From: Acutalibacteraceae bacterium
GTDB lineage: Bacteria; Bacillota; Clostridia; Oscillospirales; Acutalibacteraceae
NCBI GenBank assembly: GCA_045605425.1
Contig: JAZUQA010000012.1
Location: forward strand, 246 to 64,245
Length of the DNA: 64,000 nt
Direction: 5' to 3'
Below, piece by piece: positions 1-17,509 of the stretch. Position numbers and translations under genes: made by a program. Numbering within the stretch: position 1 is the first letter of the stretch; every line of letters begins with the position of its first letter. Below the pieces are notes generated by a model. That model saw only the letters and a list, made by a program, of their open reading frames with translations, made no database searches and had not been told where the DNA came from.

Positions 1-1767
1 ACCGTTATCAAATACGAGAATTCTGTCACAGAAACGGCAGGAGGACAGACGGTGGGAGATATAAACCGCTGTTTTGTCCTTAACCATATCATTGAAACGT
101 GAATAGATTTCGTGTTCGGCGATAGGGTCGAGCGATGCGGTGGGTTCGTCAAGTATAACAAATGCTGCATCTTTATATAATGCTCTTGCGATTGCGAGTT
201 TCTGTGCTTCACCGCCTGAGATTTCAACGCCGTCTTCTTCAAAATCTTTGTAAACGGGAGTTTTGAGTCCTTTCGGCATAGCTTTTACTCTTTCAAGCAT
301 ACCTGCTTTTTCAAGTGACGACCATACTTTTTCTTCATCATAATCAACACTTGCAGCAACATTTTCGCCAACAGAGAATGAGAACAACTTGAAATCTTGG
401 AATACAACAGAAAACAATTTCAGATAATCCTCATAATCGTATTTCTGAATATCTATTCCATTGAGAGCTATATATCCCTCTGTCGGGTCATATAGACGAC
501 AAAGCAATTTTATCATTGTCGTTTTACCGCTACCATTCATGCCGACAACTGCGATTCTGTCACCGACCTTAAATTTAAGGTTGAGGTTTTTAATCGCATA
601 TTTATCGGCACCCGGATATTTGAAGCTAATATTGTGGAACTCAATGTCATACTGATTATCCATTCGTTTTTCTGTGGGGATAGTGCCGTAATGCATTTCG
701 GTGGGAATATCAAGGTATTCAAAGAACAGCTCAAGAAAATCATTGTTTGCACGAAGATCAGCAATAGCCATTGCAAAGAGAAATGTTGCCGAAGCAATTT
801 TTGAAACACACCATTGATATTTGACAAAACTACCAAGACCGAAAGATCCTATATAAACTTTTATTGCCACATAGAGATATGTCAATGCCGTCATTGCAAC
901 CCAAAAGCCGTTATGCCACATACCTTTTTTCTTTTCGTTGTTAAACCAATCGTTCTTATGATTTTTCCATTCATTATAAAAAATATCAGAAGAATAATTG
1001 ACAAGCTTTTGTTGCGAAAAAATTCTGACATCCTTGCCCGTCTTACTATCGTCAAGATAATCGTTAAGATAGTAATGCAAAAGTCTGCCCGAATAGGAAC
1101 ATTTTTTCATATTATCAGCAATCAGATGACTGTACTTGCCGTTAGCCTTGTAATCAAAAAACGTAAGTGCAGCAATAATTACGAAGAAAAGCAAAGTCGC
1201 AACAGGAGAATCAATAAACTTTTGGAAGCCTGAAAGGATTCTGTCCGAATGCATAAAAAACATTTCAAGAGAAACTCCAAAAGCAAGAATACCACGCCAA
1301 AAAGCATTGAAGAATGTGACAAGTCTACCTACAAGTCCGCTGAACCTTGCTGTGTCACCACTGCTATCTGTTATTGTCTGTCTCATTGCTTTTATTTTTG
1401 AATCTTCCATGTTTTTATAATCCATTGAAAAATTCTTTTCATTGAGCAACATTTCTTCCCACTTGTTTGCGATTATATGAAATGAGCGAACTTTTCGCCA
1501 GGATTTATCACGGATAATACGAAAAACAATTTCCAAAGAGTAGCAAGAAATCAAAATTATAAGTTTCTTGATATCTCTGTTACCAACAAGCTCATCAATA
1601 ATGGCTGCTGTTATATAATTTGATGCTACATATGTTGCCGCAAAACAAAACGAAAACACATTTATATGAAAAAGTAAATGTGGAGTTGAGGTGTTTACTA
1701 GTTTTATCGCACGACTTATAATTAAAAAATCTTGTTTGAGAGTGCGTTTGTTTTTACTGTTGGTCAT
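1..1767 (-). CDS. ABC transporter ATP-binding/permease fusion protein (exporter half), C-terminus beyond window edge
   Basis: Own minus-strand translation. The ATG at comp(1765..1767) overlaps the TGA of the upstream gene (ATGA). The frame stays open to base 1, so it is absent from the ORF track. TM-rich N half, then Walker A GMNGSGKTT (about comp 520..546), signature ISGGEAQK, Walker B FVILDEPT, ISHRLSS. Confidence 0.85.
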   Translation of the reverse strand, partial: MTNSKNKRTLKQDFLIISRAIKLVNTSTPHLLFHINVFSFCFAATYVASNYITAAIIDELVGNRDIKKLIILISCYSLEIVFRIIRDKSWRKVRSFHIIANKWEEMLLNEKNFSMDYKNMEDSKIKAMRQTITDSSGDTARFSGLVGRLVTFFNAFWRGILAFGVSLEMFFMHSDRILSGFQKFIDSPVATLLFFVIIAALTFFDYKANGKYSHLIADNMKKCSYSGRLLHYYLNDYLDDSKTGKDVRIFSQQKLVNYSSDIFYNEWKNHKNDWFNNEKKKGMWHNGFWVAMTALTYLYVAIKVYIGSFGLGSFVKYQWCVSKIASATFLFAMAIADLRANNDFLELFFEYLDIPTEMHYGTIPTEKRMDNQYDIEFHNISFKYPGADKYAIKNLNLKFKVGDRIAVVGMNGSGKTTMIKLLCRLYDPTEGYIALNGIDIQKYDYEDYLKLFSVVFQDFKLFSFSVGENVAASVDYDEEKVWSSLEKAGMLERVKAMPKGLKTPVYKDFEEDGVEISGGEAQKLAIARALYKDAAFVILDEPTASLDPIAEHEIYSRFNDMVKDKTAVYISHRLSSCRFCDRILVFDNG

Positions 1768-3569
1768 TTCTCCTCTGCCTCCTCTCTGTAATACTTGCTT
1801 TGAATTTGATACATTTCAGCATATTTACCCGAGAGCTGTATAAGTTCATCGTGTGTACCGATTTCGGCAATGCGATTTTCATCAAGCAATACTATCCTGT
1901 CGCAAAATCTAGTTGATGAAAGTCTGTGTGATATGTAAATCGATGTTCGGTTTTGTGAAATTTCACTGTAGCGAAGATAAATTTCATTTTCGGCAATAGG
2001 GTCAAGTGCAGCGGTAGGCTCATCCAGAATAAGAATTGGTGCGTCCTTGTAAATTGCCCTTGCCAACAACAGCCTTTGTGTTTCGCCTCCTGATAGTTCA
2101 ACTGCATTTTCATTAACAGTTTTTACAAGTAGTGTATTTTCTTCTTGCGCCAATGACTTGATTTTTTTGTATAGTCCGGCTTTGTTTATGCAGTCGAAAA
2201 ATCTTTCCCTGTTACTTTCGCTAGCTGGTAACATAGAAACATTTTCAAGCACACTGCAAGGCATAAATCTTGGATCCTGAAAAACTGCAGATATAATCTT
2301 ATAATAATCATCACGATTAAATTCGGTTATATCTGTTCCGTTGACAAGAACCTTACCCTCAGTCGGTCGGTAAAGGCCGCAAATGATTTTAACAAGAGTT
2401 GTTTTTCCTGCTCCGTTTATGCCCACAAGTGCAAGATTTTCGCCTTTTTTGATCTTCAAGTTGACATTTTTTAGAACTTCATTATCACTTTCAGGATAAG
2501 TGAACGAAACATTTTGAAGTTCTATTTCATATGGTAAATCTTTTGGTAAAGGCTTTCCGTTGCGGTTTCTTGCCGTGTTTTTAATATCAAGAAATTCACG
2601 CAGGTTACCAATTTCCATATTAACTTGAATATTGCCTACGGCAACGTTACCGATTTCCGTTACATATGCTGCAAATTCCGTAACTGTAAACACATATAGT
2701 ACAAGTTCTGTTTTAGATATATTGCCATCAAGCATTGCGTGTACAATGTAGATAAATATTCCTATTTCTATACCGATACTCAACACAAGCGAAATCATAT
2801 CAGTACAAAAATAATAAAAATACATTTTTTGTGTCCAGAATTTTCTTTCACCGATAAAGTATTCACTCATATGTATAAGATAGTCTCGTAATTGATAGAG
2901 CCTTATATCTTTTGCCGATGCAAAGTCACGAGAAATACGGTTGACATAATTTAACCTTCTGTCAATTTTTGCAATAGGACCTTTTGTTTTGTTTATAAGC
3001 CGACTTTCCAAAGCAACTGAAACAAGTTTCAATGCTTCAAGCCCCGTTAATATAATAATCAGCCATGGATTCAAAGTAACAGTTATTGTTCCGTATATAA
3101 GAGTCAAAAGCAACATAGTAAAGAGTTTACCGTATTGTTCAGTAAAAGCATATACACCTTCATATGAAAGGGCATTTTTAGCTTTCTGATATTTTTCTCT
3201 GCCAACCGGTCCCTCAAGCAGGTCAAAATCCATATCCATGACTTTTTGGCCGAGATAAACATCAAAATTTCTCTCTATTTGAATACGTTTGCTTTGAATT
3301 TTTTGCCACAACACATTGCTTGCGGAATTTGAAATAATTTGTACCGCAGTAACAGCAAGCGTAACTAAAACTATTGCTGTCAAGCCTTCTTGGTTTTCAA
3401 GACAATATGTGAGTGATGTCGCAAAACTCGCAACACCAAGTTCAACGATAACAACAAAAATATCATACACTATGTTCATTGGTATCAATGTTTTATCCCA
3501 TTTGCTCAAAGCTTTAAACATAAATAAGGTGTTGTCTAAAAATGAATGGGTTGTTTTTTTCTTTTTCAC
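1764..3569 (-). CDS. ABC transporter ATP-binding/permease fusion protein
   Basis: 601 aa ORF with a TM-rich N half, Walker A GINGAGKTT, signature LSGGETQR, Walker B ILILDEPT and ISHRLSS. The 4-nt overlap with the next ABC gene suggests a heterodimeric exporter. Confidence 0.9.
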   Translation of the reverse strand: MKKKKTTHSFLDNTLFMFKALSKWDKTLIPMNIVYDIFVVIVELGVASFATSLTYCLENQEGLTAIVLVTLAVTAVQIISNSASNVLWQKIQSKRIQIERNFDVYLGQKVMDMDFDLLEGPVGREKYQKAKNALSYEGVYAFTEQYGKLFTMLLLTLIYGTITVTLNPWLIIILTGLEALKLVSVALESRLINKTKGPIAKIDRRLNYVNRISRDFASAKDIRLYQLRDYLIHMSEYFIGERKFWTQKMYFYYFCTDMISLVLSIGIEIGIFIYIVHAMLDGNISKTELVLYVFTVTEFAAYVTEIGNVAVGNIQVNMEIGNLREFLDIKNTARNRNGKPLPKDLPYEIELQNVSFTYPESDNEVLKNVNLKIKKGENLALVGINGAGKTTLVKIICGLYRPTEGKVLVNGTDITEFNRDDYYKIISAVFQDPRFMPCSVLENVSMLPASESNRERFFDCINKAGLYKKIKSLAQEENTLLVKTVNENAVELSGGETQRLLLARAIYKDAPILILDEPTAALDPIAENEIYLRYSEISQNRTSIYISHRLSSTRFCDRIVLLDENRIAEIGTHDELIQLSGKYAEMYQIQSKYYREEAEEK

Positions 3570-3636
3570 GCTTTATCACCTCGCATTATGACTATATCAA
3601 AAAAGCAACCCGAAAAGGTTGCTTTTGCACGAACGG

Positions 3637-4380
3637 TTATTTCTTTTGCACGAATGGTAACATTATTTCTGTACCAAACACTCCGTCTTCAAACTGACGG
3701 TTGACAAAGCCGTTGTATTTATCGGCGATTCTGTCAACTCTCATAAGTCCGAAGCCATGATTTTCACCCTTTGAAGATTTATATACCTTGCCCTTTTTAG
3801 CAGGAGTGCCAATCATTGAGTTAGTAACGTTTATGTAAAGCTGCTGTTTGAAAAGTCCGATATAAACACGGATAAATCTCTGAGTTTTGTCCTCGATCTT
3901 TTCGCAAGCTTCCATCGCATTGTCAAGCAAATTGCCGATGATAACGCAAAGTTCAACACCGTTTACACTGCATTCTTCGGGTATGGTTGCAGTAACCTCA
4001 TAAGGAAGATTTCTTGATTTGCAGAGTGCAAGTTTACTGTTGAGAATAGCATCCGCCATAACATTGCCGGTTTTGACAACCGTATCAACTGTGTTGAGGT
4101 CAACCGTCAGTTCGCCGAGATAGTTGCCAAGCTCGGTAAGGTTGCCCATTTCAAGTGACGCACGCATAACCTGAATGTGATTTTTATAGTCGTGACGCCA
4201 ACCTCGCATTGTTTTATAAATGTTCTGAACTTCCTCACAATGCTTTGTGATAAGGTCGTTCTGATACTCGGCAATACGCTTGTCTGTAAAGTTGCGGATA
4301 TATCTTCTCGTGAAAACAACCGCCAGAACTATTGCAAGCAAAACGCCTGCAACCGCTGCGGAAATAATCCAATAATTCAT
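3637..4380 (-). CDS. GHKL sensor histidine kinase (LytTR-partner, HPK10-like) with a single N-terminal TM helix
   Basis: 247 aa. TM helix MNYWIISAAVAGVLLAIVLAVVF, H-box WRHDYKNH, N-box GNLLDNAMEA, G-box GFGLMRV. 4-nt overlap with the response regulator gene. Confidence 0.8.
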   Translation of the reverse strand: MNYWIISAAVAGVLLAIVLAVVFTRRYIRNFTDKRIAEYQNDLITKHCEEVQNIYKTMRGWRHDYKNHIQVMRASLEMGNLTELGNYLGELTVDLNTVDTVVKTGNVMADAILNSKLALCKSRNLPYEVTATIPEECSVNGVELCVIIGNLLDNAMEACEKIEDKTQRFIRVYIGLFKQQLYINVTNSMIGTPAKKGKVYKSSKGENHGFGLMRVDRIADKYNGFVNRQFEDGVFGTEIMLPFVQKK

Positions 4381-5090
4381 TGACTGATACCTCTGTAAAA
4401 ATTGATGAAAGCCATATTGACATCGTTATACATTCGCCTTGAAACAGGAATACTTTTGCCATTGTCAAAGACTACATCTGTTTTGCTAATTCTTGAAATA
4501 TGCTGAATATTAGCTATGTATGAACGGTGACATTGAATGAAGCTCTTATCAAGCATTTTAGCAATATCAGAAATCGGGAGCTTAGCATTATATTCACCGT
4601 TTTCGCAAACAACACAGCTTGAATGTCCGAAGGCTTCAACATAAATAATATCTTTCAAATTTACTTTGAGGCTCTCGTTATCAACCGAAAGCAGCACGAA
4701 ATTATCTTCTTTCTTCAGGTTGTCGCAAGCCTTTGAAAGAACCTCAGAAAGCTTTTCTTTCTCAACGGGTTTAATCAGATAATGAAGCGCTGAAACATCG
4801 TAACCCCGTGAAATGTAATCGGGGAAACCGGTTATGAAAACAATCTGCATACTGCTGTTCGTTTCACGGATTTTCTCGGCAAGCTCAATGCCGTCCATCG
4901 CTTTCATTTGAATATCAAGCAGAAGAATATCAAAGCTTTTGTCTTCCTCATACTTAAAAAGAAACGCCTCCGCACTCGCAAAACCCGAAATGTTAACGGC
5001 GGTTTTGGTTGACTTTGCCCACTCCTGCGTGAGTGATGTCAGATATTCAATTTCAATCAGTTCATCATCGCACACAGCAATATTGAGCAT
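4377..5090 (-). CDS. LytTR-family response regulator
   Basis: 237 aa. Receiver domain (AVCDDE, LLLDIQM) plus a C-terminal LytTR DNA-binding domain (FIQCHRSYIANIQHI). Confidence 0.9.
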   Translation of the reverse strand: MLNIAVCDDELIEIEYLTSLTQEWAKSTKTAVNISGFASAEAFLFKYEEDKSFDILLLDIQMKAMDGIELAEKIRETNSSMQIVFITGFPDYISRGYDVSALHYLIKPVEKEKLSEVLSKACDNLKKEDNFVLLSVDNESLKVNLKDIIYVEAFGHSSCVVCENGEYNAKLPISDIAKMLDKSFIQCHRSYIANIQHISRISKTDVVFDNGKSIPVSRRMYNDVNMAFINFYRGISQ

Positions 5091-5237
5091 AGCATTCGTT
5101 CCTTTCGTTGAGATAATATAATTTTAGTTGTAAACGGAATAAATGTCAATGGGGATGTTTTTTGTGAGTAGGAATAGAAATAATTGCAATCACGCACAAT
5201 AAAATACACCTGATTGAGATTTTTTCTCAATTAGGTG

Positions 5238-5265
5238 TTGACTTTTGAGGTTTTTTGAATATAAT
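5238..5265 (+). promoter_or_regulatory. Putative sigma-70 promoter of the AAA/RloB/TIR-like operon
   Basis: TTGACT (5238..5243), 16-nt spacer, TATAAT (5260..5265). An imperfect inverted repeat cctgattgaga/tctcaattagg lies just upstream (about 5208..5234). Confidence 0.5.
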
Positions 5266-5300
5266 AAATATTGTAGAGGACAAAAAGGAGAGAATTGATT

Positions 5301-6575
5301 ATGTTACTTCAATTTAATTTTAAAAATTACAAATCATTTAGAGACGATACAACATTAGATTTAACTGCAACCAAAATTTCCGAATATAGCAACCATGTTA
5401 TTTCAGTAGCCAATGAGAAGGTTCTTCCTGTTGCTGCAATATTTGGAGCTAATGCAAGTGGCAAATCTAATGTCCAAGAAGCATTTAGATATATGACATT
5501 ATATGTTATTAATTCATTAAAATACGGTGGAGATGAATCTTCCAGCAAAAAGAAAAAGTCTGAATTCTTTAAACCCACGCCGTTTTTGTTTGATTCTAAA
5601 AGCAAAACAGCAGAATCTTCTTTTGAAGTCTATTTTATTGATTCTGAAGAAAACGGAGCAAAAACGTACAATTATGGTTTTACTGTTAATGCAAGTGGTG
5701 TTTGTGAAGAGTGGCTTAATTGTAAATCCAAGTCTTCTCGTGGAAACTATAAAAGAATCTTTTATAGAAATGGAAATGAATACGATTTGTCAGGCATTCC
5801 TGCAAAAAGTCAGGAAAATTTAAAGATTGCTTTGGAAAAAGAAACTTTAATTGTATCTTTAGGGGCAAAACTCAAAATCTCCAAGTTAAAATTTATTCGT
5901 GACTGGTTTATTAACAACGATTTCGCTGATTTTGGCAGACCTATTGAAAATTTCTTCCTTTCTCAACTTGTACCGGAAGGATTTGCTGAGGATGAAGCGG
6001 TTCAACAAAATGTCGTTGATTATTTCGCTACATTCGATCCGTCTGTAATTGGATTTAATGTAGAGGTGCTTCCGGCAGACGGAGAAGATGATGATGAACA
6101 CCTGAAAATAGATGCTATCCATAAAATGATAGATTCTGAAGAAACAACACAAATTCCTTTACAACACGAATCTGCAGGCACACTTAAAATGTTTGCTCTG
6201 TATCCGATGTTACAGGATGTTTTATCTACTGGAGGAGTTTTATTTGTTGATGAATTAAACGCTCGTCTTCATCCGTTGTTGGTCAGAACATTTATAATTA
6301 CTTTTCTTAATCCGGAAATTAACACAAAACACGCTCAACTCATATTCACCTCTCATGACTCATGGCAGCTTAACGGAAATATGATGAGACGAGATGAAAT
6401 TTGGTTTGCTGAAAAGGATTTGGACGGTGTTTCAAACCTCTATTCTTTAGCTGATTTCGTGGATGAAGACGGAACAAAAATCCGTAAGGATGAAAATTAC
6501 GAAAAGAACTATTTGTTAGGTAAATATGGAGCAATTCCTACCTTAAAGCACTTTGATATGTTTAAGGAGGCTTAA
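5301..6575 (+). CDS. AAA family ATPase (AAA_15/AAA_21-like, ABC-type fold), AbiLi/AriA-like
   Basis: ORF 5295..6575; the ATG at 5301 is 8 nt after GGAGAG. N-terminal LQFNFKNYKSFRD motif, Walker A GANASGKSN, Walker B-like LFVDELNARLHP, FTSHD near the C-terminus. This is the typical layout of defence-associated SMC/ABC-like ATPases. Confidence 0.8.
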   Translation: MLLQFNFKNYKSFRDDTTLDLTATKISEYSNHVISVANEKVLPVAAIFGANASGKSNVQEAFRYMTLYVINSLKYGGDESSSKKKKSEFFKPTPFLFDSKSKTAESSFEVYFIDSEENGAKTYNYGFTVNASGVCEEWLNCKSKSSRGNYKRIFYRNGNEYDLSGIPAKSQENLKIALEKETLIVSLGAKLKISKLKFIRDWFINNDFADFGRPIENFFLSQLVPEGFAEDEAVQQNVVDYFATFDPSVIGFNVEVLPADGEDDDEHLKIDAIHKMIDSEETTQIPLQHESAGTLKMFALYPMLQDVLSTGGVLFVDELNARLHPLLVRTFIITFLNPEINTKHAQLIFTSHDSWQLNGNMMRRDEIWFAEKDLDGVSNLYSLADFVDEDGTKIRKDENYEKNYLLGKYGAIPTLKHFDMFKEA

Positions 6576-6578
6576 CAA

Positions 6579-7229
6579 ATGGCTCGAATCGAAAGAAACG
6601 GAAATCGAAAAACAAGAGACCAGTTTGCTAAAAAAAGAGTCCCTGAGTTAGGCTATTATTTCATTGTAACTGACACAAAAGAAACAGAACAAAATTATAT
6701 GCATGGGTTGAGAGACTCTATTCCGTCGGATTTACAAGGCAAACTGGTAATAAAGGTAGTTAAAACCAAAACAAAAAACTTGGTAGAAGAGGCAATGGAT
6801 CTCGCCTCTTTGCATCCACAATATGGAGAAACTTGGATTATTTTTGACAGAGATCAAGTTCAAAATTTTGATGAGATCATTTGGCAAGCAAGAGAAAAAG
6901 GCATTCATGTCGGATGGACAAACCCATGTATTGAAGAATGGTTTTGTGCATATTTCGGCAAAATGCCTACATACGCAGATTCAGTTTCGTGCTGTTCGGG
7001 ATTCGGCAAAATTTTCGAGAATGCTACCAATCAAAAATACGAAAAATCAGATACGGCAATATACAAAAAGCTGATTCGTTTCGGAAACGAAGACGAAGCA
7101 ATTAAACTTGCTCAAAGAAAATTGAGTGAACACCGAGCGAACGGTAAGACAAAACCTTCAGAGATGAACCCTTGTACAACTGTTCACCTTTTGGTTGGTG
7201 AGATAAAAGGTAAAACAAAAAAGGAGTAA
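6579..7229 (+). CDS. RloB-like protein (Toprim-like partner of the AAA ATPase), AbiLii-like
   Basis: 216 aa. YYFIVTDTKETEQNY near the N-terminus and WIIFDRDQVQNFDEIIWQAREKGIHVGWTNPCIEEWF match my recollection of RloB family hallmarks (xxDrD, NPcFE-W). The start is 3 nt after the upstream stop, with AAGGAGG embedded in the upstream gene end. Confidence 0.75.
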   Translation: MARIERNGNRKTRDQFAKKRVPELGYYFIVTDTKETEQNYMHGLRDSIPSDLQGKLVIKVVKTKTKNLVEEAMDLASLHPQYGETWIIFDRDQVQNFDEIIWQAREKGIHVGWTNPCIEEWFCAYFGKMPTYADSVSCCSGFGKIFENATNQKYEKSDTAIYKKLIRFGNEDEAIKLAQRKLSEHRANGKTKPSEMNPCTTVHLLVGEIKGKTKKE

Positions 7230-7232
7230 AGT

Positions 7233-8393
7233 ATGGCAAAACAAAAAGTAACTGAAAAAACAGAATCTTGTAAAAAAACAACCACACCGAAATCTGCAAA
7301 TACTCCCGAAAAGTCTATTAAAAAGACTATAAGACAAACAGATTTGCCTAAAGTTTCTCTTGAAGATGCTTTAAAAGTTCCAATGGCAATTTGGGATCAA
7401 TATGCTGGCGGCGCAACTCAACCGATATTTGTTGCGCAGGCAATAGGGATTTCCCCATCCAGTTCCAATTGGAGGGTGCTGAGCGGAGCGGCTATTGCAT
7501 ATGGATTAACAGAAGGTGGGTATAATTCTAAAGAAATTTCGCTAACCGAATTAGGCAGGAGAATTGTCGCACCCACCTCCGAAAACGATGATAAATTAGC
7601 TCTTTTTCAAGCTGCTCAACTGCCACATTATTTTAAAAATTTTTACGAAAAATATGGTAATGGAAGTAAGTTGCCACAGGAAAACATTGCAGCAAATATT
7701 CTTACATCATGGGGAGTGCCTAAATCTGATGCTAAAGATGCTTTTGATTTAATAAGGAGAAATGGTGAATATTGCGGATTAATAGTAACCATACATGGTA
7801 ACCAATATGTTAATACCACGCCTCCGAAAACAACAACAGAAGCAGAAGAAAAACTCGCCACTTCCTTTGAAAACAGTGAAGAAGAAATAATTGTTCCTGA
7901 CAGAGTGCTTGAAAGCTTAGATATAGCTATTGATAAGAAAGAAGAAGCTCTTAAGCCTGATGTTGTTAACAATAAAGTTTTCATATCGCATGGAAAAAAT
8001 AAAAAGGTTGTTGAACAATTAAAACAATTGCTTGAATTTGGAGCTTATGATCCTGTTGTGTCAGTAGAAAGAGAAACAACTGCAATATCTGTACCAGACA
8101 AAGTTTTCAATGATATGAAAATGTGCAATGCTGGGGTTATTCATATTGAAGGCGAGCGAAAACTGTTAGATACAGAAGGACAAGAACATAGCTTGATAAA
8201 TGAGAATGTGTTAATTGAAATAGGTGCAGCTATTGCCTTATTCAATAAAAAGGTTATCTTGCTATGCAAAAAAGGAACCGCTTTGCCTTCAAATTTACAA
8301 GGTTTATATCGTTGTGAGTACGAAGGGGAACAATTGGATTATGAGTCAACAATGAAACTGCTTAAAACGTTCAGTGAATTCAGAAAGAATTAA
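7233..8393 (+). CDS. Two-domain protein: uncharacterised N-terminal region plus C-terminal TIR-like nucleotide-binding domain (Cap12/Pycsar-effector type)
   Basis: 386 aa. The C-terminal ~135 aa read VFISHGKNKKVVEQLKQLLEFG ... ENVLIEIGAAIALFNKKVILLCKKGTALPSNLQGLY, which parallels the VFIVHG / NVIFELG / PSDLxG pattern of the predicted TIR-like nucleotide-binding family. The start is 3 nt after the RloB stop, with AAGGAG 6 nt upstream. Confidence 0.6.
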   Translation: MAKQKVTEKTESCKKTTTPKSANTPEKSIKKTIRQTDLPKVSLEDALKVPMAIWDQYAGGATQPIFVAQAIGISPSSSNWRVLSGAAIAYGLTEGGYNSKEISLTELGRRIVAPTSENDDKLALFQAAQLPHYFKNFYEKYGNGSKLPQENIAANILTSWGVPKSDAKDAFDLIRRNGEYCGLIVTIHGNQYVNTTPPKTTTEAEEKLATSFENSEEEIIVPDRVLESLDIAIDKKEEALKPDVVNNKVFISHGKNKKVVEQLKQLLEFGAYDPVVSVERETTAISVPDKVFNDMKMCNAGVIHIEGERKLLDTEGQEHSLINENVLIEIGAAIALFNKKVILLCKKGTALPSNLQGLYRCEYEGEQLDYESTMKLLKTFSEFRKN

Positions 8394-8395
8394 AT

Positions 8396-8435
8396 ATAAC
8401 GCGGCTGTGAATTTCATAGCCGCGTTATATTTTAT
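8396..8435 (+). terminator. Intrinsic terminator after the three-gene operon
   Basis: Perfect 11-bp stem ataacgcggct / agccgcgttat with an 11-nt loop, followed by a T-rich tract. Confidence 0.7.
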
Positions 8436-8507
8436 AATAAACATATATAAAATGTCTTTCAATATTTTATAAGAGTTACTATCTATAATACAATTTCATT
8501 TTATGTG

Positions 8508-10142
8508 TTAAATCATTTTAAAATATTTCAACGCATCAACAATTGCGTCTTCTTTTTCTTTCGGGCAGTTGGGGACACGGTGGCCGTCTTTGCCTTTGTT
8601 ATAGCATTCTCTTTCAATGATGCCGTGTTTGGTTTTGACCTGAGCTATATATAACGAAGAAACCTTCAGTCCGAACTTTTTGAACACATATTCCTTGATT
8701 TCATCATAGGTTGCCTTGCTTTCAGCTGCGGTAATATCCATCTCATCAAGGTCTAAATCTATGTCGATATATGCGTCGGCCTTTCGTTGGGACAACTGGA
8801 CAACCGTCTCTGTATGGACGGTTTTGGGGAATAAGTCTACGGGGGTTACGAAGTGTTTGCCGTTTTCTTCGGGCACGGTATAGCCGAGGGTGGCGAAAAC
8901 TGCGCAGTCACGGGCGAGGGTTGCAGGGTCACACGAAACATATACCACACGCTTCGGGCTCATTTTAGCAACCGTTTTGATAATTGCTTCGTCACAGCCC
9001 TTTCTGGGCGGGTCGAGAATTATTACGTCGGGCTTTATGCCTTCTTTTTCCAGCTCTGCCGCTGCAAGCGAAGCGTCGCCGCAGATGAAGCGTGCGTTTT
9101 TAATGCCATTCCTTTCTGCGTTTTTCTTTGCGTCCTCTATTGCGTCGGGTATGATTTCAACGCCGATAAGCTGTTTTACTCTTTTTGCCATAGTCAGTCC
9201 GATTGTGCCCACACCGCAGTACATATCGAGAAGTACGGTGTTTTTATCTAACTCGGCATATTCTGCGGCAAGGGAATAGAGCCTTTCCGCCTGTGCACGG
9301 TTGACCTGATAGAAGGAAAGCGGTGAAATTTCAAATTCGGTTTCGCACAGTGTGTCGGTAATACTGCCTTTTCCGAAAAGGGTCTTGTTTTTTGCACCAA
9401 GAATTACGTTTGTTTTTTCTTTGTTTGTGTTGATTACAAGCCCCGTTGCGCCCTTGGCACAAATCATTTCCCACAGCTTTTCCGAGTGGGGAAGGTTATT
9501 TCCGTTTATTACGAGGCAGACGAGGATTTCCCTGCAGTCTTTTGCCGCACGGATATATATGTGGCGGAGCAGTCCTTTGTGGGAATTTTCGTCATAAACG
9601 CTTATATGATTTTCCTCTGCCCAGTTTCTCACCTGCTCGGCAATAGCCGAAAACGCTTCGGGCTGAAGCAGGCAGCTTTCACAGCCGATTATGTTGTGAC
9701 TGCGGCGTGAAAAGAAGCCTGTCTTGATTTTTCCCTGCTCTTCGCCTACGGGTAGCTGTGCCTTGTTGCGGTAGCCGACTGTTGTTTCGCTGCCGATAAT
9801 ATCTCTTATATTAAGCGGCAGACCTGCAATGCGGTGAAAGGCATCCTCCACACGCTGCTGTTTTATTTTAAGCTCTGCCTCATAGCTGATGTGGCGGTAT
9901 GCACAGCCCCCGCAACGCCTGAATACGGGGCAGTCGGGCTCAACTCTGTCGGGCGAGGGCTTGATTATTTCCATTGCCTTTGCAACGGCATAATTCTTTT
10001 TTACCTTTATTGCGTGTGCAAGAATTGTGTCGCCAACTGCCGTGAGGTCGGCAAAAACAGCCATACCGTCAATATGGCCTACGCCGCTTCCCTCGGCGGT
10101 CATTCCCGTTATTTCAAGCTCAAATTCGTCGTTCTTTTTCAA
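8508..10142 (-). CDS. rlmD: 23S rRNA (uracil-5)-methyltransferase RlmD/RumA family with a ~90 aa C-terminal extension
   Basis: 544 aa. N-terminal TRAM domain, Fe-S cysteine cluster CPVFRRCGGCAYRH, SAM-binding DMYCGVGTIG, catalytic region VYVSCDPATLARD. Extra C-terminal domain after about residue 455. Confidence 0.85.
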   Translation of the reverse strand: MKKNDEFELEITGMTAEGSGVGHIDGMAVFADLTAVGDTILAHAIKVKKNYAVAKAMEIIKPSPDRVEPDCPVFRRCGGCAYRHISYEAELKIKQQRVEDAFHRIAGLPLNIRDIIGSETTVGYRNKAQLPVGEEQGKIKTGFFSRRSHNIIGCESCLLQPEAFSAIAEQVRNWAEENHISVYDENSHKGLLRHIYIRAAKDCREILVCLVINGNNLPHSEKLWEMICAKGATGLVINTNKEKTNVILGAKNKTLFGKGSITDTLCETEFEISPLSFYQVNRAQAERLYSLAAEYAELDKNTVLLDMYCGVGTIGLTMAKRVKQLIGVEIIPDAIEDAKKNAERNGIKNARFICGDASLAAAELEKEGIKPDVIILDPPRKGCDEAIIKTVAKMSPKRVVYVSCDPATLARDCAVFATLGYTVPEENGKHFVTPVDLFPKTVHTETVVQLSQRKADAYIDIDLDLDEMDITAAESKATYDEIKEYVFKKFGLKVSSLYIAQVKTKHGIIERECYNKGKDGHRVPNCPKEKEDAIVDALKYFKMI

Positions 10143-10199
10143 TGTAATTCCCCTTGAATATTTGCAAGTATATATTGTAATATATTAATAGGTGATATT

Positions 10200-10508
10200 A
10201 TGGATAAATCGGTTTTTGAAAAAATATATGATGTGGTTAAACAGATTCCCCGTGGCAAGGTGGCTACCTACGGACAAGTTGCCTTGCTTGCAGGAAACCC
10301 ACGGTGGGCAAGGGTAGTCGGCTACGCCCTGCACGTCAATCCCGACCCTGACACAATTCCCTGCTACCGTGTTGTCAACCGTGAGGGCAGGGTTTCGCCT
10401 GCCTTTGCCTTTGGCGGAGAAAATATGCAGATTTTAATGCTGGAGGGTGACGGAATAAAGGTCACCGACGGAAAGGTGGATTTATCCGTCTGCCAATGGC
10501 TTCCTTGA
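10200..10508 (+). CDS. MGMT-family protein (methylated-DNA-protein-cysteine methyltransferase DNA-binding domain only)
   Basis: 102 aa. IPRGKVATYGQVA and the active-site-like IPCYRVV (canonical PCHRV). Confidence 0.75.
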   Translation: MDKSVFEKIYDVVKQIPRGKVATYGQVALLAGNPRWARVVGYALHVNPDPDTIPCYRVVNREGRVSPAFAFGGENMQILMLEGDGIKVTDGKVDLSVCQWLP

Positions 10509-10958
10509 TTTTAATATCTTTAAAACAACAATATATAAAAGTACGCAAACGGCAATTCCGACTGCCGCACCTGTTGCATCTACTGCAATATCGCTTATCT
10601 GAAACGCTCTGCCGGGAACAAAAATCTGGTGAATTTCATCGCTGATTGCGTAAAGCACCGCCACGGCAAAGCAGATGAAAGGCTTTGATTTGCCCGTGGT
10701 CTGTAAAAAAGCGTGGAAAAGCAGGGCGCCGAGTCCGCAGTATTCAAGTCCGTGCGCAAGCGTGCGGAAGGCCTCGTGCCCCAGAAAATCGGTAAGCCAC
10801 GCAAAAACGGCAAATATGCCGTTCATAACTGCCATACTCAATTCGGCACTTTCTTCTCGGGGCTGATGTGAAAGGTAAAAAATCACACCCATGCAGGCGG
10901 CAACTGCTGCCCAACCGATAAGGATGCCGAATTTTCTTTTTGTGCTGTAGTTTTTCAT
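10482..10958 (-). CDS. VanZ family membrane protein
   Basis: 158 aa, 4 TM segments, DEIHQIFVPGRAFQISDIAVDATGAAVG motif typical of VanZ-like proteins. Confidence 0.7.
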   Translation of the reverse strand: MKNYSTKRKFGILIGWAAVAACMGVIFYLSHQPREESAELSMAVMNGIFAVFAWLTDFLGHEAFRTLAHGLEYCGLGALLFHAFLQTTGKSKPFICFAVAVLYAISDEIHQIFVPGRAFQISDIAVDATGAAVGIAVCVLLYIVVLKILKSRKPLADG

Positions 10959-12592
10959 TAGTCTTTCAATATCTCCGTTTGGTCAAGTCTGATTATACTT
11001 CCCGAATGTGTGTAGTAAATGCCTACGGCGTTTTCGTTTGTTGCGGTATAGCCCGAGCGGTAGTAAATCGGACAGAAAACCGCATTCTGTACAAGATATT
11101 CCTGTGCCTTCATACAGCCGTCTGCAATGCTTTGCAGACCTGTGGCGGTGTTGAGCTGTGAAACAAGCGTGTTGAAGTTTTTGGAATTGTAGCGGCAGAT
11201 GTTGTTGCCGTCACGGAAGGTGGAAAGAAACTGAACGGCGGTCTGTGCCGTTGTGGTGATTTCGGTGAGCGCACATTGGTAGCTGCCGCTGCTTATACGC
11301 TTGTCGAGCTCCGCTTTTTCAAGCACCTCAACCTTTGCGTAAAACGTTATACCGAAAAGCTGCTGCCATTTCTGGATTATGCGGCGCACGGCTGTTTCGT
11401 ATTCGGGTGTACACAGCACGGTGAATTCGCAGGATTTGAGGTTGCATTCCTTGTAGTACTTTTTAGCGGCGCTTTCGTCGTAGCTCAGCGTGCCGAGCGC
11501 AGGCATAAAGCTCGAATAGGTTTTTCCCTCAACCGTGCAGGACGGCGGCACTATGCTCAGCGCACGGTTTTCCTCCGCTTCGCCCGAAGCCTCACGGATT
11601 ATGTCGAAATCAAGAGCTTTGATAAGTGCAAGGCGCAGACGGTTGCTCTTTGTAAGTGAATCCGAGCAGTTGAATGCAAGACCCCACACGCCGTTTTTGT
11701 ATTCGTTTATGCTGTAGCCCTCTTTTTTGACGGCATCTATGCTCGAATAAAGTATCGGGGCGGAGGCATAGGTATCGTCGGACAGGTTTTCGAGGATGAT
11801 TGCTTCGTCCGTAGTGTACGCAAAGGTGACGGAATAAACCTTTGCCTGCGCCTGCGGATTGTCAACGTTACGGCGCAGTATCATATTGCTGCCCTTATAC
11901 CAGCGTGAAAGGTAGAAGCTGCCGTTGCACAGCACATACTGTGCGTCAAGTCCGTGTCTGCCGCCCGTGGCTTCAAAAAACGCCTGCTTGCAGGGCATTG
12001 AAATCGGCTCGGTGAGCATTGAAAGAAATTCGCCGCTTGCGTATTCAAGCTGTATTTGTACGGTGTATTCGCCCGTTGCGGTAACGCCGAGCGCACTCAC
12101 GGGCAATTCACCCTTGTGCACCTTTTCGGCATTCTTTATCATATAAAGGCGCTTTGCGTCGGGAGCCTTGGTTTCGGGGTCGAGAGCCCTCTGCAGTCCG
12201 AAAACAAAGTCTGCCGCAGTTACACGCAGGTCAATTGCCGTTTCCCAGTCCTCGCCGAAAATCTCCTCGTGGTTGGAGTTGATGTGCCACTTTTTGTCCT
12301 CGTGAAGTGAAAAAGAATAGGTAAGCCCGTCGGGAGAAACTGAAACGCTTTTTGCCGCCGCAGGCTGAATTTCGCCCGTTGCGGTCAGCTTCATAAGCCC
12401 CTCAAAGCAGTTGAGCACAACAGTCCTGCTCTCACGGGTAACGGCTATCTGCGGGTCAAGCGTGTCGGGCTCGGCACTTAAAGGCAGTCGCAGCTCAGCA
12501 TCCTTGACCGTTTTTGAACAGCCCGAAAAACAGCCGCAGACCGTAATCAGCGAAAGGATAAGTATAGCTATTTTTAAAGAATACTTTTTCAT
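10958..12592 (-). CDS. Peptide/oligopeptide ABC transporter substrate-binding lipoprotein (family 5 SBP)
   Basis: ORF 10958..12613. The likely start is MKKYSLKIAILILSLITVCGC (ATG comp 12590..12592), which has a lipobox. The length and LRLPLSAEPDTLDPQ motif are typical of family 5 SBPs. Confidence 0.7.
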   Translation of the reverse strand: MKKYSLKIAILILSLITVCGCFSGCSKTVKDAELRLPLSAEPDTLDPQIAVTRESRTVVLNCFEGLMKLTATGEIQPAAAKSVSVSPDGLTYSFSLHEDKKWHINSNHEEIFGEDWETAIDLRVTAADFVFGLQRALDPETKAPDAKRLYMIKNAEKVHKGELPVSALGVTATGEYTVQIQLEYASGEFLSMLTEPISMPCKQAFFEATGGRHGLDAQYVLCNGSFYLSRWYKGSNMILRRNVDNPQAQAKVYSVTFAYTTDEAIILENLSDDTYASAPILYSSIDAVKKEGYSINEYKNGVWGLAFNCSDSLTKSNRLRLALIKALDFDIIREASGEAEENRALSIVPPSCTVEGKTYSSFMPALGTLSYDESAAKKYYKECNLKSCEFTVLCTPEYETAVRRIIQKWQQLFGITFYAKVEVLEKAELDKRISSGSYQCALTEITTTAQTAVQFLSTFRDGNNICRYNSKNFNTLVSQLNTATGLQSIADGCMKAQEYLVQNAVFCPIYYRSGYTATNENAVGIYYTHSGSIIRLDQTEILKD

Positions 12593-12750
12593 ATATATGC
12601 ATCGACCTAACATAAATCTTTATTAAGCTATTTTATTATATAACATCATAGTGAATATGGCAAATGTTTTTTATTTGAACCGAAAGCACACAAATAAACA
12701 AAACCTTTTCATAATTGTGAAAAAATTTGTGCAATATCCAAAAAAATATA

Positions 12751-12779
12751 TTGAAATGCGAAAAATTATATGTTATAAT
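12751..12779 (+). promoter_or_regulatory. Putative sigma-70 promoter upstream of the EF-G paralog
   Basis: TTGAAA (12751..12756), 17-nt spacer, TATAAT (12774..12779). Confidence 0.5.
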
Positions 12780-12883
12780 CCACTATGTTATCGCTTTTAG
12801 TGCCATATAAGGCAAAAGCAATAGAACATAAATTTTCATAGCGGCGGCGGTTTTGGTGCCGCGCCGTCAAGGAGGAAACCACA

Positions 12884-14938
12884 GTGAAAGCCTATAACGC
12901 AAAAGACATCCGCAATATCGCCCTCGCCGGTCACGGCGGCAGAGGTAAAACTTCTCTTGCAGAAGCAATGCTCTACCTTGCCAAGGCAACAGACCGCCTC
13001 GGCAGAGTTGCGGACGGAAATACAGTTCTCGACTACGATGCTGAAGAAAAGCGCAGAGGCGCTTCTGTTTCAACAGCGGTTGCCCCCATCGAGTGGAAGG
13101 ACACAAAGGTTAATATAATCGACACTCCCGGTATGTTCGACTTCGCAGGCGGCGTTGCCGAGGGTATCAGAGCTGCTGAATGTGCACTTGTTGTTGTCGG
13201 CGGCAGCATGGAAAAGTTTGATGTCGGCGCAGAAAAGGCAATCAAGGCTGCTGACAAGCGTGGCATTGCAAAGATGTTCGCTGTCACAAGGCTTGATTCC
13301 GAGCAGAACGACTTCTACAGAACATTTAACACAATTGTTGCTCAGGTCGGTGCTTCCGCCTGCCCGATTGTTGTTCCCCAGATTGAGGACGGCAAGGTTA
13401 TCAGCTACGTAAACCTTGTTACAAACAAGGCTTATTCCTACACCTACGGCAACGCAACAGAAATTGCAATGCCCGACGATGACAGAGTCAACGCTATGAG
13501 AGATATTTTCAACGAGGCTGTTGCTTCCGCTGACGATGCTCTTATGGAAAAATTCTTCGAGGGTGAGCCCTTCACACAGGAAGAAATCGTAAACGGCCTC
13601 AAGACAGGTGTTGCAGAGGGGCTTGTTATCCCCGTATTCGCTTGTGCAGGCTATACAATGGACGCTGTTGATATGCTTATCGACGGTATTGTCAACTTTG
13701 CTCCCAACGCTGCCGATTACGCAGGCGAGGCAGACCTCAAGTGTGACGAAAACGGCGCTCTTGCAGCGGTTTGCTTCAAGACGGTTGCTGACCCGTTTGT
13801 CGGTAAGATGTCCTATTTCAAGGTTGTTTCCGGTAAGCTGACATCCGATGCTCAGGCCGTTAACTCCCGTACAGGTGAGCCCGAGCGTATGGGCAAGCTC
13901 GTCACAGTCCGTGGCGGTAAGCAGGAAGATGCAGCCGTTATCCCTGCAGGCGATATCGGTGCTGTTACAAAGCTCTCCAACACAGTTACGGGCGATACAC
14001 TCTACGCTCCCAAGAGCGAGGTTATTCTTGACCCCGTTTCCTTCCCTGCACCCTGTATGTCAATGGCAGTAAATGTCAAGAAGAAGGGTGAGGAAGAAAA
14101 GGTTGCCGCAGGCCTTCTCAGACTTGCTGAGGAAGACCCGACAATCAAGTACTACACAAACAAAGAAACACGTGAGCAGATTGTCAGCGGTCTTGGCGAG
14201 CAGCACATCGACGTTGTCAAGTCCAAGCTCAAGGCAAAGTTCGGCGTTGAGGTTGACCTCACTGTTCCCCGTGTTGCATACCGTGAAACCATCCGCAAGG
14301 TTGTTGACAAGCAGGGTCGCCATAAGAAGCAGTCCGGCGGTCACGGTCAGTTCGGTGATGTTTGGATTCGTTTCGAGCCCTATATGGGTGAGGAAGACTT
14401 CGTTTTCACCTCTGACGAGGTTGTCGGCGGCGCAGTTCCCAAGAACTTCTTCCCCGCAGTTGAAAAGGGTCTTCGTGAGTGCATTGCAAAGGGTCTTATC
14501 GCAGGCTACCCGATGGTCGGCGTAAAGGCTGCCCTTCACGACGGTTCATATCACCCCGTTGACTCCTCTGAAATGGCCTTCAAGACAGCTGCTGCTCTTG
14601 CATTCAAGGCTGCTGTTCCCGAGGCACAGCCCACAATTCTTGAGCCCGTAGGTCTTCTCAAGGTCTATATGCCCGAATCCAAGTTCGGCGACATCATGGG
14701 CGATATTACAAAGCGCCGTGGCCGTGTTATCGGTATGGGTCCGTCCGACGAGCCCTCACTCCAGGAATTTGTCGCTGAAGTTCCCATGGCAGAAATGGGT
14801 GACTTCGCAACAGTTCTTCGCTCCGTAACACAGGGCAGAGGTCACTTCTCCTTCGAGTTCGTCCGCTACGAGGATGCTCCCATGAACGTTCAGCAGAAGG
14901 TTATTGAAGAGGCAAAGGCACGCATGGAAGACGAATAA
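12884..14938 (+). CDS. Elongation factor G family GTPase (EF-G paralog)
   Basis: 684 aa, GTG start after AAGGAGGA. G1 GHGGRGKTS, DTPGMFDF, EF-G domains II-V recognisable (HKKQSGGHGQFGDV, GYPMVGVKAALHDGSYHPVDSSEMAF). Confidence 0.85.
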   Translation: MKAYNAKDIRNIALAGHGGRGKTSLAEAMLYLAKATDRLGRVADGNTVLDYDAEEKRRGASVSTAVAPIEWKDTKVNIIDTPGMFDFAGGVAEGIRAAECALVVVGGSMEKFDVGAEKAIKAADKRGIAKMFAVTRLDSEQNDFYRTFNTIVAQVGASACPIVVPQIEDGKVISYVNLVTNKAYSYTYGNATEIAMPDDDRVNAMRDIFNEAVASADDALMEKFFEGEPFTQEEIVNGLKTGVAEGLVIPVFACAGYTMDAVDMLIDGIVNFAPNAADYAGEADLKCDENGALAAVCFKTVADPFVGKMSYFKVVSGKLTSDAQAVNSRTGEPERMGKLVTVRGGKQEDAAVIPAGDIGAVTKLSNTVTGDTLYAPKSEVILDPVSFPAPCMSMAVNVKKKGEEEKVAAGLLRLAEEDPTIKYYTNKETREQIVSGLGEQHIDVVKSKLKAKFGVEVDLTVPRVAYRETIRKVVDKQGRHKKQSGGHGQFGDVWIRFEPYMGEEDFVFTSDEVVGGAVPKNFFPAVEKGLRECIAKGLIAGYPMVGVKAALHDGSYHPVDSSEMAFKTAAALAFKAAVPEAQPTILEPVGLLKVYMPESKFGDIMGDITKRRGRVIGMGPSDEPSLQEFVAEVPMAEMGDFATVLRSVTQGRGHFSFEFVRYEDAPMNVQQKVIEEAKARMEDE

Positions 14939-15252
14939 ACCCAAAGTTGCGCAAATTGAGCGAACAAGTCATTTTTCCCTCCTCGGCGTATCTCATACGC
15001 CTGTCGTCGGGAGAAAATGCCTTCTTCATCACAATTTGTCAACTTGCGTGATTGCGCATATTAATATTAAGAGAAGAACAAAAGAAACTTAAAAACATCA
15101 GGCTTATGGGTTAGTACTCATAAGCCTGTTTTCATATCTGAATTATGTCATTCCTGTGATGAAAAAGATAAAATTTATAAAAGTATAAAAATATGTTTGA
15201 AATAATTCTGATTTCGTGCTATTATAACAGCATATCAGTATAAAGGGAGGTT

Positions 15253-16704: not shown

Positions 16705-17279
16705 CAGTCTGGTACGTAATCACAAAGATTTTTACATTCCCCGGCGCACTCACAAAGGCTTTTTATGAGCAGCTTATGTGCAAGATTTTCAAGTGCCCCG
16801 TTGAGGATAACCGTTACCTGCGCACGGACGAAATGTGCGGCCACGTTGAGCACGAGTTTATCGAAAGACCGGTTGCCAGCTTTATGTATTGCTTTATTCC
16901 CGGTCTGCTCAACTTCTTCTTCGGTCTTTTCCTTGGCTTCTTCCCGTTTATAAACGTTGTTTATCTCGGCAATTACAGCGGCTTTGTCGCTTCTTCTCAG
17001 ATTCTTTCCTCCGCAATTACGGATGCAAATGCTGTTGCGCTTGTTGATATGCTCCTGCCCATTATCTTTATGTGGCTGAGCGTTTCAATGTTCAACAACC
17101 TCTTCCCCTTGCTTGAGGATGCTGTCGTTATGAAGGAGCAGTATTCAAAGCTTAACGGCTTTGCAAAGGGAATTTTCTTCCCCGGCTATATCGTAATGAA
17201 GGTCGGCGCAAGACTTGAAAAATACGGCATCAGCTTTATTATTCTTGCCGTGCTCTCCTTTGTATTTGCTATACTTTAA
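16701..17279 (+). CDS. Hypothetical integral membrane protein
   Basis: 192 aa, 4-nt overlap with the upstream gene, several hydrophobic helices. Followed by the terminator aaaaagctcacagc/gctgtgagcttttt (17296..17328). Confidence 0.6.
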   Translation: MTVWYVITKIFTFPGALTKAFYEQLMCKIFKCPVEDNRYLRTDEMCGHVEHEFIERPVASFMYCFIPGLLNFFFGLFLGFFPFINVVYLGNYSGFVASSQILSSAITDANAVALVDMLLPIIFMWLSVSMFNNLFPLLEDAVVMKEQYSKLNGFAKGIFFPGYIVMKVGARLEKYGISFIILAVLSFVFAIL

Positions 17280-17340
17280 AACTTAAAGCGCATTAAAAAG
17301 CTCACAGCGTAAAAGCTGTGAGCTTTTTGTGTGTAAGGAT

Positions 17341-17505
17341 GCTGATAAACTGTAATTAAAATAATAAATAAGAAATAATAAAGAATAAAGAAGGGTGGGC
17401 TTCGCCCACACCCATTTATATTCGGGTGCGGGTGTCCCGCCCTAATTTATTATTTTTTCTTTCTTCTTTATTCTTTTAGCAACAATTTATTGTTGCGCTA
17501 AACTG
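17341..17505 (+). repeat. Intergenic palindromic element, copy A (heptamer-repeat arms plus conserved GC-rich core 17393..17452)
   Basis: The core gggtgggcttcgcccacacccatttatattcgggtgcgggtgtcccgccc is shared with copies at 31539..31584 and 51947..51996. A-rich heptamer arm on the left and T-rich arm on the right. 3' hairpin gcaacaatttattgttgc. Confidence 0.7.
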
Positions 17506-17509
17506 TTAT

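Follow-up and report, generated by a model that had tools for sequence, protein, structure and literature searches.

Organization of the three-gene operon

The window analyzed here is a stretch of 64,000 nucleotides from Acutalibacteraceae bacterium (assembly GCA_045605425.1, contig JAZUQA010000012.1, positions 246 to 64,245), and our subject is a forward-strand operon within it whose three genes (hereafter genes 1, 2 and 3, together the trio) encode an AbiLi-type ATP-binding cassette (ABC) ATPase, a small RloB protein of the Toprim superfamily and a two-domain protein that ends in a TIR-like domain. An earlier note, made by a model that ran no database searches, had described the trio as a pair resembling AbiL or PARIS (phage anti-restriction-induced system) to which a dedicated TIR-like effector, perhaps controlled by the ATPase and RloB, had been added. 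The genes and their signals are arranged as follows (positions in the window).

5206-5238, no strand assigned: palindrome (arms of 14 bp: ACACCTGATTGAGA-ttttt-TCTCAATTAGGTGT) flush with the -35 box
5238-5265, + strand: sigma-70-type promoter TTGACT-16-TATAAT, 11 of 12 consensus positions, the sole strong + strand promoter for the three genes
5301-6575, + strand: gene 1, AbiLi-type ABC ATPase (AAA_21), 424 amino acids
6579-7229, + strand: gene 2, RloB/AbiLii, Toprim superfamily, 216 amino acids
7233-8393, + strand: gene 3, two-domain protein with a C-terminal TIR-like domain, 386 amino acids
8392-8432, + strand: intrinsic terminator, a perfect 19-bp stem with a 3-nt loop, followed by UUUUAU

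At both junctions the gap from the stop codon to the next start is exactly 3 nt, and the Shine-Dalgarno sequences of gene 2 (AAGGAGG, 6563-6569) and gene 3 (AAGGAG, 7221-7226) lie inside the final codons of the preceding gene. A promoter scan revealed no comparable + strand site directly 5' of gene 2 or gene 3. The terminator, which a pattern scan had missed and whose stem length is taken from the fold computation, folds with a free energy of -27.7 kcal/mol (z = -8.9), and none of 200 shuffled sequences was equally stable. Sequence and fold together bear out the layout proposed in the earlier note, namely three genes spaced by 3 nt, embedded Shine-Dalgarno sequences, one promoter and one terminator; the motifs quoted there are all present as well (LQFNFKNYKSFRD, GANASGKSN, VDELNARLHP, FDRD, NPCIEEW, VFISHG, NVLIEIG and PSNLQG), and its domain assignments (AAA ATPase, RloB and TIR-like PF10137) were recovered with Pfam and PADLOC profiles.

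The palindrome that abuts the promoter has a folding energy of -20.7 kcal/mol (z = -6.7). When we aligned seven loci (the window and the homologous loci L002, L162, L165, L171, L082 and L100), it was kept in position and sequence 5' of gene 1 in all seven, whatever genes follow the pair, with changes in one arm compensated in the other (e.g., ACATCTATTTGAGA/CCTCAAATAGATGT in L171); the TTGAC and TATAAT elements of the promoter were invariant across the same loci. The palindrome may serve the module formed by genes 1 and 2 as an autoregulatory operator or as an insulating hairpin. On the minus strand, a divergent promoter-like site (TTGACA-17-TAAAAT, 5149-5121) faces the LytTR operon.

Genes 1 and 2 form an AbiL-type pair

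Gene 1 matches Pfam AAA_21 (6.7e-29) and PADLOC AbiLi (3.7e-88), and its product carries a Walker A motif (GANASGKSN, with K55), the signature ESAGTLKMF, the Walker B residues D317/E318 and an H-loop (TSHD); Walker A, ES.GTLKMF, Walker B and T.HD were invariant in 79 unique relatives. Gene 2 matches Pfam RloB (1.5e-32) and PADLOC AbiLii (1.6e-19), and possesses the Toprim glutamate E37 (TDT..TE), a DxD motif (D90/D92, within FDRD) and NPCIEEW, of which E37, D90/D92 and NPC.E.W were invariant in 60 unique relatives. RloB has been placed in the Toprim superfamily by a conserved glutamate and a DxD motif (PMC12065111), and E37 and the DxD of gene 2 are exactly the residues on which that assignment was based.

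The pair consists of an AbiLi ATPase gene and a directly adjacent, same-strand AbiLii/RloB gene, which are both elements of the two-gene AbiL definition used in the style of PADLOC/DefenseFinder. Hence, the AbiL half of the earlier classification stands, whereas the definitions of PARIS and Gabija do not fit the pair, as discussed in the last section. A 2026 review counts AbiL among the two-component systems, places it together with PARIS (ABC ATPase plus TOPRIM), and describes its mode of action as still undetermined (PMC13064643). Neither gene 1 nor gene 2 yielded a regulator domain, and an NCBIfam search of the three proteins added nothing.

Gene 3 combines a novel N-terminal domain with a TIR-like domain

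The predicted structure of the gene 3 product starts with a disordered N-terminus, followed by an N-domain, a linker (approximately residues 200-245) that is again disordered, and a C-terminal TIR-like domain, with predicted local distance difference test (pLDDT) values above 90 in the N-domain and of about 80 in the C-domain.

7314-7832 (residues 28-200), + strand: N-domain, helical and winged-helix-like, assigned to no Pfam family
7974-8324 (residues 248-364), + strand: CAP12/Pycsar-type TIR domain, PF10137 at 5.6e-17

The PF10137 match scores 62.3 bits against a curated cut-off of 24.7 and covers profile positions 1-118 of 119. Within it we recognized the motifs VFISHGKN, NENVLIEIGAA and LPSNLQGLY, whose residues, including the glutamate E329 in the second, were invariant in 24 relatives. 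The family profile of gene 3 aligns NVLIEIGAA and LPSNLQGL with NVHLEFG and LPSDAAGL of PycTIR (8jsj); a PDB sequence search gave only a marginal match to PycTIR (E = 0.05), which served for motif alignment alone. In a Foldseek search of the PDB, the best matches of the C-domain were the TIR domain of SfTIR-STING (7un8, E = 1e-5) and a TIR-STING complex (9lmq), followed by DNPH1, SARM1, the SPARTA TIR, the MyD88 TIR and nucleoside deoxyribosyltransferases. TIR domains of the PF10137 clade (Cap12, PycTIR, TIR-STING) are NADases upon oligomerization driven by N-terminal sensor domains. PycTIR itself has an N-terminal sensor followed by a PF10137 TIR that is activated by oligomerization (PMC11224242). 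By analogy with these relatives, the gene 3 product may act as a NADase when it oligomerizes, with E329 as the candidate catalytic residue.

Modeled alone, the N-domain reached a pLDDT of 94, and a PDB fold search with it returned no match at E <= 0.001 (best E = 0.06). The resemblances seen, to the winged-helix modules of O-methyltransferases, the recognition domains of FokI/BspD6I, RuvB and GntR, are only weak, so that a DNA-binding role stays a guess. Among Pfam families only DUF7226 came up, below threshold (E = 0.02-0.04), and NCBIfam gave no match. DUF5343 was considered as a relative and rejected (hhalign probability 0.2). A profile search of 1.84 billion representatives nevertheless yielded an N-domain family of 2,972 clusters at 50% identity. 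Among 149 representatives of this family (P0121-P0269), the N-domain is joined to PF10137 in 46, to a Ser/Thr kinase (Pkinase) in four and to AAA_15 in one; the C-termini of the others are unannotated or truncated, many of these proteins being 240-300 amino acids long with unannotated C-termini. The N-domain is thus joined to interchangeable effectors, as a modular sensor or adaptor would be, which supports the view of gene 3 as a self-contained sensor-effector. We presume that it is a sensor or oligomerization domain.

Gene 3 belongs to a widespread, stand-alone family

The gene 3 family comprises more than 3,458 protein clusters at E <= 1e-3 and is conserved over its full length; the best 120 relatives, all 360-410 amino acids long, show identities of 48% or more. 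The family is represented in 532 GTDB species of many bacterial phyla (Bacillota, Pseudomonadota, Acidobacteriota, Planctomycetota, Verrucomicrobiota, Actinomycetota, Chloroflexota and Bacteroidota among them) and of the Archaea, and its distribution is patchy. We inspected the gene neighborhoods of the best 80 species loci of these 532 species. According to tblastn, genes 1 and 2 lie upstream of gene 3 in L002 only, the closest gene 3 relative in this sample (68% identity), and 78 of the 80 loci have no ATPase/RloB neighbor; at L040 a divergently oriented ATPase (27% identity) stands beside the gene 3 relative. No other partner recurs: clustering of the three open reading frames (ORFs) on either side over 79 loci gave a largest cluster of five loci, with varying positions and strands. 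Most copies are flanked by intergenic gaps on both sides, with neighbors in mixed orientation.

The gene 3 family is therefore autonomous and overwhelmingly stand-alone, and the proposal that gene 3 is a dedicated third component under the control of the ATPase and RloB is not borne out by its relatives. A gene does not become a dedicated component by being packed tightly into an operon with a known defense pair, and family-wide synteny argues against it here. The same is indicated by a stand-alone copy from within the trio clade itself (protein P0010 at locus L168), which is 64-67% identical to the trio copies, closer than the L171 copy, and nests among them. This copy adjoins an MjaI-type restriction-modification (R-M) system, and no remnant of the AbiL pair was detected 5' of it, even at E <= 10. 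DNA homology of L168 to the window extends over 7333-8439 and includes the terminator region (8394-8439), which is not common to the other trio loci. A segment of approximately 1.3 kb 5' of this gene 3 relative (L168:3675-5000) is without a called gene.

One may ask whether gene 3 is an immune effector at all, or rather a DNA-binding regulator or a nucleotide-processing enzyme (akin to nucleoside deoxyribosyltransferases or DNPH1) that is co-transcribed with AbiL by chance. The C-domain fold also matches DNPH1, the CMP N-glycosidase BcmB and nucleoside 2-deoxyribosyltransferases (E about 4e-3 to 1e-2), the N-domain is weakly winged-helix-like, and the databases name the family just 'nucleotide-binding protein'. 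The best sequence and fold matches, however, belong to the CAP12/Pycsar/TIR-STING clade; the patchily distributed copies sit in widely varying neighborhoods, often with R-M or mobile-element genes; and gene 3 occupies a position otherwise held by defense systems (see below). We therefore consider a non-immune role highly improbable.

A variable cargo slot follows RloB

The reverse test started from gene 1 and covered 80 metagenomic loci (L082-L161) that encode relatives of it (55-87% identity). In nearly all of them RloB is kept directly downstream, and a full gene 3 was found in none of the 80. The genes that follow RloB, hereafter the cargo, mostly share its strand and lie very near it, but differ between loci. 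Among the 72 loci with enough sequence downstream of RloB, a same-strand ORF of at least 100 amino acids starts no more than 40 nt from the RloB stop in 43 and at 41-150 nt in 6, and is lacking in 23. The following cargoes were recognized.

DUF5343 + Ymh/HEPN-like genes: 10 loci, 2-nt gap, gene 1 85-87% identical to that of the window
Type II cyclic oligonucleotide-based antiphage signaling system (CBASS), with cyclase, E1/E2, JAB and 2TM effector: 8 loci
Pycsar (antiphage system built on a pyrimidine cyclase), PycC + PycTM
ThsB genes: L117
LmuA-like ABC-3C protein
ResIII/DEAD helicase
PDC-M36A
Mrr-like protein, identified by eye only, not by hidden Markov model

Other cargo genes are unannotated, e.g., those for a 955-amino-acid protein in L149 and an 858-amino-acid protein in L161. 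At L100 (2072-3244, + strand), the gene after RloB overlaps its end and encodes a 390-amino-acid protein whose N-domain is 30% identical to that of gene 3 (E = 3e-19) and whose C-terminus is a different type of TIR, matching a CBASS effector-TIR profile (5.9e-11) and no Pfam family.

Since the CBASS and Pycsar cargoes bring their own effectors, occupancy of the slot implies no dependence on the AbiL pair. Moreover, the trio loci are interleaved with the DUF5343 + Ymh and other-cargo clades in a neighbor-joining tree of the ATPase, indicating that cargoes have replaced one another in this lineage. The DNA homology of the window to other AbiL loci starts at 5191-5225; with those that carry other cargo it covers 5201 to about 7246 and then breaks, and among the trio loci it extends over 5195-8394, from the palindrome through the gene 3 stop. 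These limits, along with the conservation of the palindrome and promoter, mark out the palindrome, promoter and genes 1 and 2 as one module (A), and gene 3 with the terminator as another (B). Compared with L082/L084, which carry DUF5343 cargo, the homology reaches approximately 14 nt past the RloB stop (7233-7246), where the encoded proteins start with MAKQK... in the window and MAEQN... in the other loci. This homology into the first codons of unrelated cargo genes may represent a recombination joint for cargo exchange.

Hence, we favor, with a probability of about 0.6, the reading that two defense modules are stacked in one transcription unit: an AbiL/RloAB-type pair and, in its 3' slot, an autonomous sensor-TIR gene. 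The slot could also be taken to mean that the AbiL pair serves as a generic leader for any defense cargo, gene 3 being one, by providing palindrome-promoter-regulated transcription and perhaps toxin-antitoxin-like stabilization. The palindrome and promoter are indeed conserved regardless of cargo, cargo types are interleaved in the ATPase tree, and the gaps in front of the tightly linked cargoes, often 2-33 nt, are too short for a promoter. RloAB pairs embedded among other defense genes are known from type I R-M loci, at least as these are cited in PMC13064643 and PMC12065111, and PARIS acts as a toxin-antitoxin pair, its ATPase serving as sensor and antitoxin and its Toprim protein being the toxin that is set free (PMC13064643). 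Nevertheless, the 23 loci without tightly linked cargo show that the pair also lives alone, defense genes gather in islands for reasons that have nothing to do with mechanism, and genes 1 and 2 encode no recognizable regulator domain, which makes a general leader function decidedly unlikely in our opinion.

The trio behaves as a cassette in a small clade

When gene 3 relatives (59-94% identity) were looked up by exact protein, the trio, with junctions of 3-4 nt, turned up in at least five genomic contexts.

Context 1, the window and L001 (near-identical): between a LytTR two-component/ABC locus and a RumA-type methyltransferase
Context 2: L002
Context 3, L162-164: adjoining a resolvase
Context 4, L165-167: between a PIN_12 gene and a TnpV + T5orf172/Eco57I pair
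Context 5: L171

The flanks of L162-L167 thus hold a resolvase, TnpV, a PIN_12 protein and a T5orf172/MUG113 protein with an Eco57I-type methyltransferase, and such mobile-element and defense genes fit the movement of a cassette between defense islands. Identity to the window falls in parallel for the three genes, from 99 through 86-87 to 73% for gene 1, from 97 through 75 to 64% for gene 2 and from 94 through 67-71 to 59% for gene 3, and the pairwise identities across the trio loci give the same topology for all three. This indicates that the trio was assembled once and was then inherited and moved as a unit. The co-occurrence of gene 3 with the AbiL pair is confined to the small clade of the window/L001, L002, L162-167 and L171, and the best-supported account is that the combination of modules A and B was fixed as a mobile cassette in this small clade of Clostridia. 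The neighborhood search that the earlier note had proposed as a check cuts both ways: nearly the whole gene 3 family is not syntenic with the AbiL pair, and within one clade the three genes form a co-diverging cassette.

The persistence of the trio with its short junctions in several contexts and its parallel divergence, which would also be expected from a functionally integrated system, are points against independent stacked modules, as is the dependence of gene 3, which here lacks a promoter of its own, on the AbiL promoter for its expression. The domain-swapped protein in the slot of L100, with the same N-domain and another TIR, likewise hints that the AbiL lineage prefers this class of protein. 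These observations keep in play, above all through co-divergence and the missing promoter, a true three-component system in which the ATPase/RloB pair senses infection and controls the TIR protein, by sequestering it or by triggering its oligomerization, with the TIR as an extra or alternative effector. The embedded Shine-Dalgarno sequences, the single promoter and terminator, and the exact extent of homology among the trio loci, from the palindrome to the gene 3 stop, would all agree with such a system. It is opposed by the overwhelmingly stand-alone occurrence of the gene 3 family, including the copy at L168 inside the trio clade, and by close AbiL relatives (85-87% identity) that carry unrelated cargo or none; other occupants of the slot are complete, autonomous systems. 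In addition, the trio copies of gene 3 retain the same invariant motifs as their stand-alone relatives, and RloB, with its catalytic residues intact, already provides a nuclease-type effector. On balance, we judge a three-component system unlikely. Functional coupling of the three genes within the trio clade is no more than a possibility, and the data are read more economically as two systems stacked together.

Genomic setting of the operon

The operon lies in a block of low GC content (32-41% over 1-8500 of the window), together with an ABC transporter, a histidine kinase and a LytTR regulator; from 8.5 kb on, starting at the RumA-type methyltransferase, the GC content is 45-53% (8500-16000). 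Such composition suggests that the block is horizontally acquired DNA, perhaps a larger island. A search for tRNA genes as integration sites found none in 1-20000 of the window, and an exact-protein look-up of the LytTR neighbor, made with regard to presence/absence polymorphism of the cassette, gave no record. The operon was not found in plasmids (PLSDB), where just two marginal matches to the 5' end of gene 1 appeared. Among 50,697 GenBank phage records there was no relative of gene 3, and in IMG/VR only three of 2.9 million contigs carried one, all of them distant.

Discussion

Our collective results suggest how the two stacked modules might work. Module A (5195-7232) comprises the ABC ATPase, the RloB Toprim protein, a conserved promoter of their own and the palindrome abutting it; by analogy with PARIS, the ATPase would restrain the Toprim nuclease and set it free in response to a phage cue. 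Module B (7233-8439) would be a self-contained, single-gene system, drawn from a widespread stand-alone family, in which the N-domain senses a cue or drives oligomerization and thereby switches on the C-terminal TIR, leading to depletion of NAD+ and abortion of the infection, as in PycTIR and TIR-STING. Module B occupies the variable cargo slot straight after RloB, in which related AbiL loci hold other complete defense systems. The anti-phage function of the locus and the functional independence of its two modules are what we infer.

The significance of the locus, in our view, goes beyond the trio. First, the gene 3 family emerges as a very widespread, uncharacterized candidate single-gene defense family, which combines a novel N-terminal sensor-like domain with a TIR of the CAP12/Pycsar clade and has no cyclase partner. 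Second, the AbiL-type lineage, with its conserved promoter-palindrome, heads a hot cargo slot that can be mined for new defense genes, as several of its cargo ORFs are unannotated; the slot may also help to explain why ATPase/RloB pairs are so frequently embedded among other defense genes. Both are more interesting leads than the trio itself. Speculatively, the AbiL pair in this Clostridia lineage could even be a platform, whose palindrome-promoter and tight 3' junction act as a docking slot where swappable effector cassettes (DUF5343 + HEPN, sensor-TIR proteins with either of two TIR types, or even entire CBASS or Pycsar systems) are expressed and possibly gated by the ATPase/RloB complex. 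We regard such a platform as rather doubtful; if it were real, the trio of the window would be the most stable example of an integrated TIR NADase system under ATPase/Toprim control.

Comparison with known systems

The earlier note did not recognize the trio as a named system, and we agree: no three-gene system in PADLOC v2 matches it, and we found no AbiL+TIR or RloB+TIR system named in the literature. The likeness to PARIS (AriA/AriB) lies in an ATPase and a Toprim nuclease encoded by two genes, and an AriA/AAA_21-type profile matches gene 1 (2.3e-26). However, AbiLii and AriB share no significant sequence similarity and superpose poorly in structure (PMC13064643), and neither Pfam nor PADLOC gave an AriB or DUF4435 match in gene 2 at E <= 1. 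Gene 2 is thus an RloB without an AriB profile match, and the pair does not belong to PARIS. The GajA profile of Gabija matches gene 1 weakly (3.6e-5, residues 313-405); since the ATPase and Toprim parts are on separate genes and the operon has no GajB helicase, Gabija does not apply either.

Gene 3 resembles PycTIR (Pycsar), Cap12 (CBASS) and SfTIR-STING in that an N-terminal sensor domain precedes a TIR of the PF10137 clade, and its NVxxExG and LPSxxxGL motifs align with those of PycTIR, but its N-domain is not a CNBD, SAVED or STING domain. Pfam and PADLOC searches of the three operon genes found no cyclase or CD-NTase (cGAS/DncV-like nucleotidyltransferase) domain. Hence, the locus is neither a Pycsar nor a CBASS system, and the cue that activates gene 3 is unlikely to be a cyclic nucleotide produced through a neighboring gene. 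The PADLOC single-gene candidate PDC-S35 has a related C-terminal TIR-like domain, and five of its profiles match gene 3 weakly over residues ~219-380, i.e., in the C-domain only (1e-9 to 4e-6); with 231-278 positions, these profiles do not include the N-domain, so that PDC-S35 represents a different family. ThsB of Thoeris is likewise a TIR-family anti-phage protein, and ThsB genes fill the slot after RloB in L117; unlike ThsB, gene 3 has no match to PF08937 or to the ThsB profiles, and ThsA is absent.

The AbiL system of Lactococcus lactis (AbiLi/AbiLii) and RloAB of Campylobacter share with the window an ABC-type ATPase gene followed by a small Toprim/OLD-like RloB gene. The window differs from them by a third gene that is translationally close-coupled downstream, and the palindrome-promoter conserved in its lineage, together with the variable slot for cargo, is a further difference. 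The locus joins known kinds of systems and is not a new category.

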